Source: Minisyncoccia bacterium
Lineage (GTDB): Bacteria > Patescibacteriota > Minisyncoccia > UBA6257 > JACOXY01
Length of the DNA stretch: 25,694 nt
Assembly (NCBI GenBank): GCA_041476445.1
Contig: JBGOTK010000001.1
Coordinates: 1-25,694, forward strand
Direction: 5' to 3'
This document shows positions 15,931 through 16,663 of this stretch, piece by piece. The notes under the pieces are model-generated. The model had not been told where the DNA came from. It searched no databases and was given only the letters and a program-made list of their open reading frames with translations. The position numbers and the translations under genes were made by a program. Positions within the stretch are counted from its first letter, which is position 1. Each line of letters begins with the position of its first letter.

Positions 15931-15972
15931 TTTTACTATTATATCTCACGATCGTGAGATATAATAGTAAAA
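15931..15972. repeat. Perfect 42-bp palindrome upstream of the Cas2-like gene
   Basis: TTTTACTATTATATCTCACGA|TCGTGAGATATAATAGTAAAA. Confidence 0.95.
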
Positions 15973-16029
15973 CACGCTATTATTATTTTTACCATTACTT
16001 TTTTACCCTTACTTTAAAATTGAACTCCA

Positions 16030-16602
16030 ATGAAAGGTGATCTTACTCACAAAATGCTCGAATTAATCTCTCGAGCTAGTCTCAAAACAACCGATACTAT
16101 CGCGGCTTTTTTAACTTCGCCCTATGGCAGCTCTTATAAAACCATTGAATATAATCTCGAAAGGCGGGAGCACCGACGTGGACGGGCAATACTTCAGAAA
16201 GAAGAGAGGCAGCGTTATTACAATCTTCTCTATACGCTCAAAAAAGAAGGGCTGATCAAAGAAGTAGACCAGGGGCTGCTCTCGGTCACCGAAAAAGGAA
16301 GGGCGTGGCTCTTGCGGCATAAAAATAATAATAGACAAGTTCCCGCTGTTCGCTATACAGGATTGCCTCACGATCGTTTTATTATCGTAGCCTTCGATAT
16401 TCCCGAAAAAGAACGGTTCAAGCGCGACTGGTTGAGGACTGCGCTAAAATCCTTAGGGTTACAAATGATTCAGCGTAGCGTGTGGATGGGCAAAGTTAAA
16501 TTACCCGCACTTTTTCTAAGCGACGTGAGAAAATTACGCTTATTGGACTCAGTCGAGATTTTTGAAATAACGAGAACCGGAACCTTAAAACACCTACTCT
16601 AG
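16030..16602 (+). CDS. Solitary winged-HTH plus Cas2-like ferredoxin-fold protein (PaaX-like regulator)
   Basis: wHTH-like RYYNLLYTLKKEGLIKE...SVTEKG, then IIVAFDIPEKERFKRDWLRTALKSLGLQMIQRSVWMG (Cas2/PaaX-central-domain pattern). No cas1 or array in the window. Confidence 0.75.
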   Translation: MKGDLTHKMLELISRASLKTTDTIAAFLTSPYGSSYKTIEYNLERREHRRGRAILQKEERQRYYNLLYTLKKEGLIKEVDQGLLSVTEKGRAWLLRHKNNNRQVPAVRYTGLPHDRFIIVAFDIPEKERFKRDWLRTALKSLGLQMIQRSVWMGKVKLPALFLSDVRKLRLLDSVEIFEITRTGTLKHLL

Positions 16603-16623
16603 AGAATCTATCGAGCCTATTTC

Positions 16624-16663
16624 TTTACTATGTTTTCTCACGATCGTGAGAAAACATAGTAAA
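16624..16663. repeat. Perfect 40-bp palindrome downstream of the Cas2-like gene
   Basis: TTTACTATGTTTTCTCACGA|TCGTGAGAAAACATAGTAAA; 34/40 identical to the upstream palindrome. Confidence 0.95.

Follow-up and report, generated by a model that had tools for sequence, protein, structure and literature searches.

A PaaX-type mini-protein encoded between matching perfect palindromes: an apparently undescribed family of protein/DNA-site pairs in Patescibacteria

On a 25,694-nt stretch of contig JBGOTK010000001.1 from a Minisyncoccia bacterium (hereafter the window, meaning this whole stretch), a plus-strand gene at 16030..16602 encodes a protein of 190 residues in which a winged helix is joined to a PaaX_M/Cas2-like domain, here called mini-PaaX. 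The gene is bracketed by two related, perfect DNA palindromes of about 40 nt, and palindromes likewise accompany its paralogues and most of its homologues. We class the module as a PaaX-type regulator whose sites are unusual in being perfectly palindromic and in bracketing the regulator's own gene; apparently it belongs to a large, undescribed family of protein/DNA-site pairs, and a literature search found no paper describing it. The reading that we favor, at a probability of roughly 0.55, is drawn from sequence comparison and predicts that a truncated PaaX-type dimer binds dyads of ~40 bp, thereby repressing its own gene and marking other intergenic sites. An earlier note, made from the letters of the window alone, had proposed a self-contained module whose protein acts on its own palindromes, and it is this proposal that the following comparisons bear on.

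The upstream palindrome is perfect over 42 nt (15931..15972; the core described in the earlier note comprises 40 nt, 15932-15971), is centered on the octamer ACGATCGT and has an outer block TACTAT; the downstream palindrome is of the same type and perfect over 40 nt (16624..16663), neither of the two being assigned to a strand. Both share the outer block TTTACTAT and a 16-nt core around ACGATCGT, which within the window is found solely at these two sites (chance expectation 0.07). At 34 of 40 positions (85%) they are identical, and all six differences are confined to the N4 blocks, which read TATA/TATA upstream and GTTT/AAAC downstream; the three that affect each arm are exact mirror images, so that both palindromes remain perfect, just as the earlier note had stated. 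The ATG at 16030 lies 57-58 nt past the upstream palindrome, while the downstream one begins 21 nt beyond the stop codon (which ends at 16602), in a convergent gap with a phosphoglucomutase/phosphomannomutase (PGM/PMM) gene whose stop is at 16723. A TATAAT at 15960-15965 falls inside the right arm of the upstream palindrome, which is presumed to be a binding site that overlaps or adjoins the promoter region of the gene. The A+T-rich leader from this palindrome to the ATG is occupied by a tandem repeat (15986..16015, plus strand; unit TTTTTACCATTACT, 14 nt in 2.1 copies, 93% match), possibly promoter or UP-like DNA. As a single strand, either palindrome would give a hairpin of 18-19 bp, with computed folding energies for single-stranded DNA of -15.4 and -16.4 kcal/mol (z = -9.1 and -8.6 against shuffles). 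An intrinsic, Rho-independent terminator was considered and rejected: the stems are A+T-rich, no U-tract or T-run stands behind them, and the terminator scan called neither palindrome. Classical bidirectional terminators consisting of A-tract, GC stem and T-tract do exist in this genome, for instance at C15:1649-1686 and C71:4732-4769.

Perfect palindromes in an assembly invite the suspicion of a fold-back, which the earlier note had itself raised. Public-run data (Logan contigs, ~4-6x depth) from several sediment samples independently reproduce the arms with unique flanks; because such contigs show both palindromes, a fold-back artifact is ruled out. The contigs end inside the palindromes, as is typical of de Bruijn unitigs, and the segment between the palindromes appears as a unitig of its own with 717 nt (window 15937-16653). 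Since this segment assembles as a separate small unitig, short cassettes are likely lost from binned genomes.

The encoded protein consists of an N-terminal winged helix (residues ~1-105), which is variable in an alignment of 30 members, and a C-terminal Cas2-fold domain (residues ~112-190), which is strongly conserved there; F122, D123, E126, R132, W134, R136, S150, W152 and G154 are invariant. Residues 118-184 match the Pfam family PaaX_M (PF20803; 44.9 bits at a cut-off of 24, E 1.2e-11), the 'PaaX central Cas2-like domain' of Pfam, and the three other paralogues of the genome match it likewise. Further matches were obtained to Pfam Cas2 (E 1.4e-5) and, covering only the N-terminal half of the model, to NCBIfam TIGR01573 (E 8.8e-9; 35.5 bits against a cut-off of 24.5). 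PaaX_M and Cas2 were the only assignments given by Pfam and NCBIfam, with neither an HUH/Y1 domain nor any other known transposase or recombinase domain in the protein. The Pfam family of the PaaX N-terminal winged helix (PF07848) gave no match at E <= 1 and Mrr_N only a sub-threshold one, and the phenylacetyl-CoA ligand domain PaaX_C is absent, the protein stopping at residue 190 directly behind the Cas2-like domain. An AlphaFold (AF2) model with a predicted local distance difference test (pLDDT) score of 83 places a helical, winged N-domain and a long helix before a C-terminal beta-alpha-beta-beta-alpha-beta domain; the latter resembles the Cas2 structures 6jhz, 3exc and 5zyf (Foldseek probability 0.99), D123 being aligned to the aspartate of the Cas2 YDV motif in 3exc, and the whole chain matches the PaaX structure 8a39. 

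The family is large, with 1542 clusters at 50% identity (910 at E <= 1e-10) and a uniform length of about 185-205 residues, and the records that name an organism come from Patescibacteria (Wolfe-, Lipton-, Jorgensen-, Brenner-, Azam- and Colwellbacteria, Paceibacterota). Many of its public entries carry the label 'Cas2'. With CRISPR Cas2 the protein shares the ferredoxin-like fold and the beta1 hhhhD motif, but its domain is fused to a winged helix; moreover, Cas1 (PF01867) was not found in the 96%-complete genome and the window contains no CRISPR-array-like tandem repeats. We thus rejected an identity with CRISPR Cas2: the public annotation of the family is misleading, and the protein is no adaptation protein. 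The earlier note had likewise seen housekeeping-type neighbors without cas1 or array, and this stands, the neighbors being an RNaseH_like (PF04308) gene and the PGM/PMM gene. A second, more PaaX_M-like subfamily of ~200-220 residues (locus L027 in genome G027, L028 in G025 and other strong PaaX_M matches) also has long flanking palindromes, whose centers, for example ACTATCGT and ACTATAGT, differ from CGATCG.

The gene is not the solitary one that the earlier note had taken it for. The host genome (G000; 0.75 Mb) holds four paralogues with mutual identities of 36-46%, named here after their contigs, C1 being the gene of the window. Each of the four is flanked on both sides by a private palindrome type: at 15931 and 16624 for C1, at 5851 and 6519 for C29, at 1980 and 2783 with a third site at 2066 for C83, and at 5435 and 6022 for C41. 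Another ~16 palindromes with the CGATCG center and arms of 17-23 nt lie as orphans in other intergenic gaps: 15 of 16 stand within 60 nt downstream of a stop codon and all 16 within 70 nt, three of them in convergent and none in divergent gaps. In two other genomes, G006 and G041, tandem and convergent gaps prevail as well, with three sites in divergent ones. The C1 arm type is not common genome-wide, being limited to the two flanking sites and one degenerate orphan after serS (C70:2884-2919), so that a wide spread independent of the gene, which the earlier note had named as a refutation, is not seen. One orphan lies in the window itself (24646..24683, no strand assigned): it measures 38 nt, is near-perfect with one mismatch and has the C29 arm type. 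A five-copy type with the arm ...GTCCATTTGACGATCG (C6:11987-12028, C70:4312-4351, C59:1306-1343, C53:853-898 and C11:9789-9806) flanks no paralogue in the assembly; it resembles the third site at C83:2066 and may belong to the C83 paralogue with a spacing shorter by 1 nt, or to a gene missing from the assembly. On contig C7, two unlike long palindromes (11693-11740 and 11764-11805) stand 70 nt apart in a single tandem intergenic gap; one has C41-type arms and the other, a variant, is centered on GTGATCGC.

Homologues were then located in 41 genomes belonging to the same order and at 80 additional loci of GTDB species genomes; the 112 loci scored were each scanned over 260 nt upstream and 160 nt downstream of the gene. 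Palindromes are present at 81 of the 112 loci (72%): 47 have them on both sides, 13 only upstream and 21 only downstream, leaving 31 without, so that a cognate site is found upstream in 60 and downstream in 68 cases. Homologues without flanking palindromes, which the earlier note had named as a possible refutation, are thus in the minority. The 47 kb beside the gene contain 128 palindromes compared with 13 in the remaining 254 kb of flanks, an enrichment of ~50-fold. The central octamer ACGATCGT occurs in 87 of these 128 sites, and near variants of it form other centers (GCGATCGC in 12, ACGGCCGT in 6 and CCGATCGG in 4). Over the 112 loci the upstream site lies a median of ~30 nt ahead of the start codon. 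Within a locus the arms of the upstream and downstream sites differ by a distance of 0.19, as opposed to 0.53 between loci. Arm distance and N-terminal protein distance, the co-variation between palindrome and winged helix for which the earlier note had suggested a check, do correlate (r = 0.14, p ~0.002, Mantel), a weak relation that is inseparable from shared ancestry.

A covariance model of the palindrome was additionally used to search the 41 genomes, which are mutually non-independent. Sites were found in 18 of the 25 genomes with a PaaX_M gene and in 5 of the 16 without one; put differently, 18 genomes have protein and palindromes, 7 the protein only, 5 palindromes only and 11 neither. 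Copy number is low, at 3-25 per genome. In G006, which has ~24 sites, the abundant type (~15 copies; L037-L044, e.g. L041:947-992) carries TTATCCACA in each arm, a perfect DnaA-box-like nonamer. Taken together, the private sites at four of four paralogues, the presence at 72% of the loci, the locus-matched arms and the tendency to co-occur lend strong comparative support to a self-contained module whose protein would act on its own palindromes.

The same data can be read differently, with the palindromes as elements in their own right, for example bidirectional 3'-end RNA hairpins, boundaries or insertion hot spots, which the protein does not recognize and between which the gene family merely tends to reside. 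The position of the orphans of the host genome close behind stop codons, several in convergent gaps, would fit this, as would the five genomes with palindromes and no gene; furthermore, Rho (TIGR00767) was not found in the 96%-complete assembly, and three sites are positionally shared by G000 and G041 with unrelated arms. Such a reading leaves unexplained, however, why a paralogue-private arm type is matched on both sides of a gene and why palindromes are enriched ~50-fold beside a single family; neither the missing U-tract nor the missing wobble bias described below suits RNA hairpins, and the conserved center tracks the conserved protein domain. We consequently give it little credence.

How the palindromes change was followed by comparing the four half-sites position by position at the 45 loci with both sites. 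All four are identical at 706 positions, and a single half-site deviates at 47. At 69 positions the two palindromes differ from one another and are symmetric within themselves; because the other two possible 2:2 partitions occur at only 1 and 2 positions, the two arms of a palindrome must be regarded as co-evolving, and the mirrored substitutions of the earlier note thus hold more generally. Positions 1-4 and 11-16 from the center almost never differ between the two sites of a locus, and the variation at positions 5-10 and 17-20 is mirrored. Where downstream sites depart from symmetry, the mismatches on the sense strand number 13 GT/TG, 24 AC/CA and 25 of other kinds, and pair counts from the alignment agree in showing no G-U enrichment. 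Since the mismatches have no wobble bias, the constraint acts on DNA and not on an RNA hairpin of the sense strand, and the RNA-hairpin reading of the palindromes was rejected.

This bears directly on a toxin-like ribonuclease (RNase), whose Cas2/VapD-like domain would cut the RNA hairpins into which the palindromes fold at the two ends of the protein's own message. Ribonucleases are known among both Cas2 and VapD proteins, the aspartate is retained, and the hairpins would be very stable. The upstream palindrome, however, is mostly promoter-side DNA, the 13 GT against 24 AC mismatches run counter to a wobble bias, and winged helix and PaaX-type architecture favor duplex DNA; no antitoxin partner is seen, and four paralogues coexist. 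An RNase of this kind is therefore highly improbable.

The strength of the constraint is illustrated by four loci (L016, L116, L033 and L113) with a common arm type and homologous neighbors on either side, so that this cassette is vertically inherited and positionally stable. When L016 is compared with L033, identity reaches 100% in the 40-bp palindrome, 68-69% in the flanking DNA and 46% in the protein, and blastn returned no alignment of the cassette gene; the site is thus far more constrained than either the protein or the adjoining housekeeping genes. The palindrome of L113 shows one mirrored T-to-A change.

From these observations a mechanism can be proposed in which protein and site correspond part by part, the conserved Cas2-fold domain pairing with the conserved center and the variable N-domain with the variable arms. 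PaaX (PDB 8a39, 3l09), a repressor in E. coli and Pseudomonas that responds to phenylacetyl-CoA, also represses its own promoter. Its operator in E. coli, TGATTC-N27-GAATCA, spans 39 bp and has outer half-sites (PMC9493321). In mini-PaaX, too, an N-terminal winged helix is followed by a Cas2-like dimerization domain, and the dyads of ~40 bp to which it would bind have nearly the span of that operator. We envisage that two subunits dimerize via the conserved Cas2-fold domain, which would be placed over the CGATCG center, and that the two variable winged helices would read the outer block ~11-18 bp from the center, so that one dimer would cover the ~40-bp dyad much as PaaX covers its operator. 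Each paralogue would recognize its private arm sequence. Protein bound ~30-60 nt ahead of the start codon would repress the promoter of its own gene; autorepression appears likely because the upstream site lies a median of ~30 nt from the start and, in the window, holds the TATAAT in its right arm. Downstream and orphan sites would be further targets, serving as operators of a regulon and/or as protein roadblocks that end transcription units, the latter in a genome in which Rho was not found; boundaries or loop anchors are conceivable roles as well.

Mini-PaaX is nevertheless not a bona fide PaaX, since the N- and C-terminal domains of PaaX are not found: it has 190 residues only, without PaaX_C and without a match to the PaaX N-domain. 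Its neighborhood contains no paa genes, the sites are perfect across the whole 40 bp with a conserved CGATCG center and stand on both sides of the gene, multiple paralogues have private sites, and the family is confined to Patescibacteria in the searches made. With the three options that the earlier note had left, the autoregulatory DNA-binding unit fits best, an RNase is unsupported, and a mobile cassette is a weak possibility.

Several points weigh against the autoregulatory dimer. It is unusual for operators to flank the gene of their regulator at both ends, the lack of the PaaX ligand domain leaves no evident signal input, and promoter-like sites found by a scan were no better than in shuffles. 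Roughly a quarter of the orphans stand between convergent genes and have no promoter there to regulate. Five genomes have palindromes and no detectable gene; this could reflect assembly loss because unitigs break at palindromes, and in one of these genomes (G003) both sites inspected are solo sites. Finally, mirrored change also affects positions that vary within a locus (69 mirrored compared with 47 in a single half-site). A dimer on duplex DNA does not by itself demand this, and an additional mechanism is needed, either template switching or recognition of a hairpin or cruciform. One known mutational route by which arms are homogenized is template switching at quasipalindromes (PMC7202029, PMC8794818). 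Under the autoregulatory reading, two processes acting on the DNA itself would preserve the perfect symmetry, namely such homogenization and selection on the dyad as a whole. No SbcD (TIGR00619), which acts against DNA hairpins, was found in the 96%-complete genome, for which reason long palindromes may be tolerated.

If recognition of hairpins or cruciforms were the answer instead, mini-PaaX would represent a Cas2-fold family that acts on long DNA palindromes in this form and nicks, resolves or copy-corrects its cognates. Although we consider this improbable, it would explain the mirrored evolution, and it would amount to a partnership of the kind known from REP/RAYT or attC, with a Cas2 fold in place of the HUH or tyrosine enzyme; a Cas2 relative with palindromic repeats outside CRISPR would, moreover, bear on how Cas2 was recruited to repeat arrays.

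Because plain duplex binding does not explain mirrored change at non-fixed positions, a related reading keeps some probability, by which the palindromes are semi-selfish, dispersed hairpin or cruciform repeats that the Cas2-fold protein binds or nicks and thereby spreads, maintains or polices. Its model is the repetitive extragenic palindrome (REP) with the REP-associated tyrosine transposase (RAYT; TnpA_REP), whose organization has been described (PMC3116915, PMC5581495). As there, a single gene is flanked by cognate palindromes that are also dispersed extragenically, one type goes with one gene lineage or paralogue, inheritance is vertical over the long term, and stems change in a compensatory manner, here by mirrored evolution that suggests intrastrand pairing. 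Many of the ~24 sites of G006 are identical over 44 nt and their variants carry mirrored substitutions, with four or five copies within a ~350-nt repeat (85-94% identical) by contig ends; D123 matches the aspartate of the Cas2 YDV motif, and downstream of xerC a solo palindrome in G000 faces a full cassette in G041. Against this stands the protein itself, which is no HUH/Y1 transposase, contains no other known transposase or recombinase domain and has the architecture of a PaaX-type regulator, its aspartate and glutamate being conserved in non-catalytic PaaX_M too. The palindromes are perfect and loop-free, unlike the imperfect REP hairpins with their GTAG head, and they number tens (3-25 per genome), not hundreds. 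The paralogues are old (identity at most 46%), one cassette is positionally stable in four genomes, and neither target-site duplications nor excision junctions were seen. Given that the HUH domain is absent, mini-PaaX is not a RAYT, and we regard a REP/RAYT-like role as unlikely.

Whether the cassettes move as a whole is a separate question. By this account palindrome, gene and palindrome would be a minimal mobile unit that is moved or exchanged by recombination at the palindromes, excision leaving a solo palindrome and integration occurring at an existing one, loosely as integron cassettes do at attC. Neighbors of the cassette are almost never common among the 112 loci. At L093 and L094 the cassette is 89% identical amid DNA that is unrelated further upstream, but the homology starts ~50 nt outside the palindrome and not at it. 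Between G000 and G041, whose proteins share 45-75% amino-acid identity, three of ~10 G041 sites are at a matching place relative to genes, with unrelated arms, where a rough estimate gives ~0.3 by chance: the uvrA-uvrC gap holds a cassette of a different, non-orthologous type in each, the gap downstream of xerC shows the cassette and solo palindrome mentioned above, and an orphan palindrome follows the same ndh-like gene in both. Two explanations of this agreement suggest themselves: the sites are long-lived and their arms track the protein, or certain slots are preferred for insertion.

The orphan of the window at 24646-24683 belongs in this context, as it overlaps the stop codon of a reverse-transcriptase (RT) gene (RVT_1; 24653-25660, minus strand). 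Between this gene and the 76%-identical RT copy on C5, homology sets in precisely at the palindrome's outer edge, the palindrome itself being ~90% identical. This compact RT gene exists in three diverged copies (window 24646-25694; C5:16775-17633; C90:43-403 and 2074-2107), two of which have a C29-type palindrome over the stop codon, and the RT on C90 has a third palindrome ~1.7 kb upstream of it; RT units may thus be bounded by the same palindromes.

With integron cassettes the module has in common single-gene units, palindromic bounds in which symmetry rather than sequence is conserved, and one slot that can hold different cassettes, but it lacks an integrase, an attI/Pc platform and a cassette array, its palindromes are short and perfect, and the enclosed gene always comes from one family. 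The unit encodes no recombinase, no target-site duplications were seen, and the public-run contigs, which are of low depth only, break inside the palindromes and are uninformative on excision or inversion, contained no joints, excision junctions or empty sites, including the empty-site alleles for which the earlier note had suggested looking. There are no recent intragenomic duplicates, the paralogues being as far from each other as from homologues in other genomes, and one cassette is syntenic across four genomes. For the C1 locus, the PGM/PMM neighbor was not found in the same-family genomes G001-G003 and G041. On balance, a mobile cassette is very doubtful.

Patescibacteria have tiny genomes and are uncultivated, and to our knowledge they offer almost no characterized regulators. 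Because each member of the family has a presumptive binding site on both sides of its gene, specificity should be readable from sequence alone, and the family would provide a direct entry to gene control or to the boundaries of transcription units in these organisms, while correcting a widespread mis-annotation as 'Cas2'. It would equally supply a natural data set of proteins paired with 40-bp sites, in which the diversification of DNA-recognition specificity can be studied, and an unusually clean case of concerted evolution of palindrome arms, for which template switching, cruciform recognition and an enzymatic activity of the Cas2 fold are the candidate causes.

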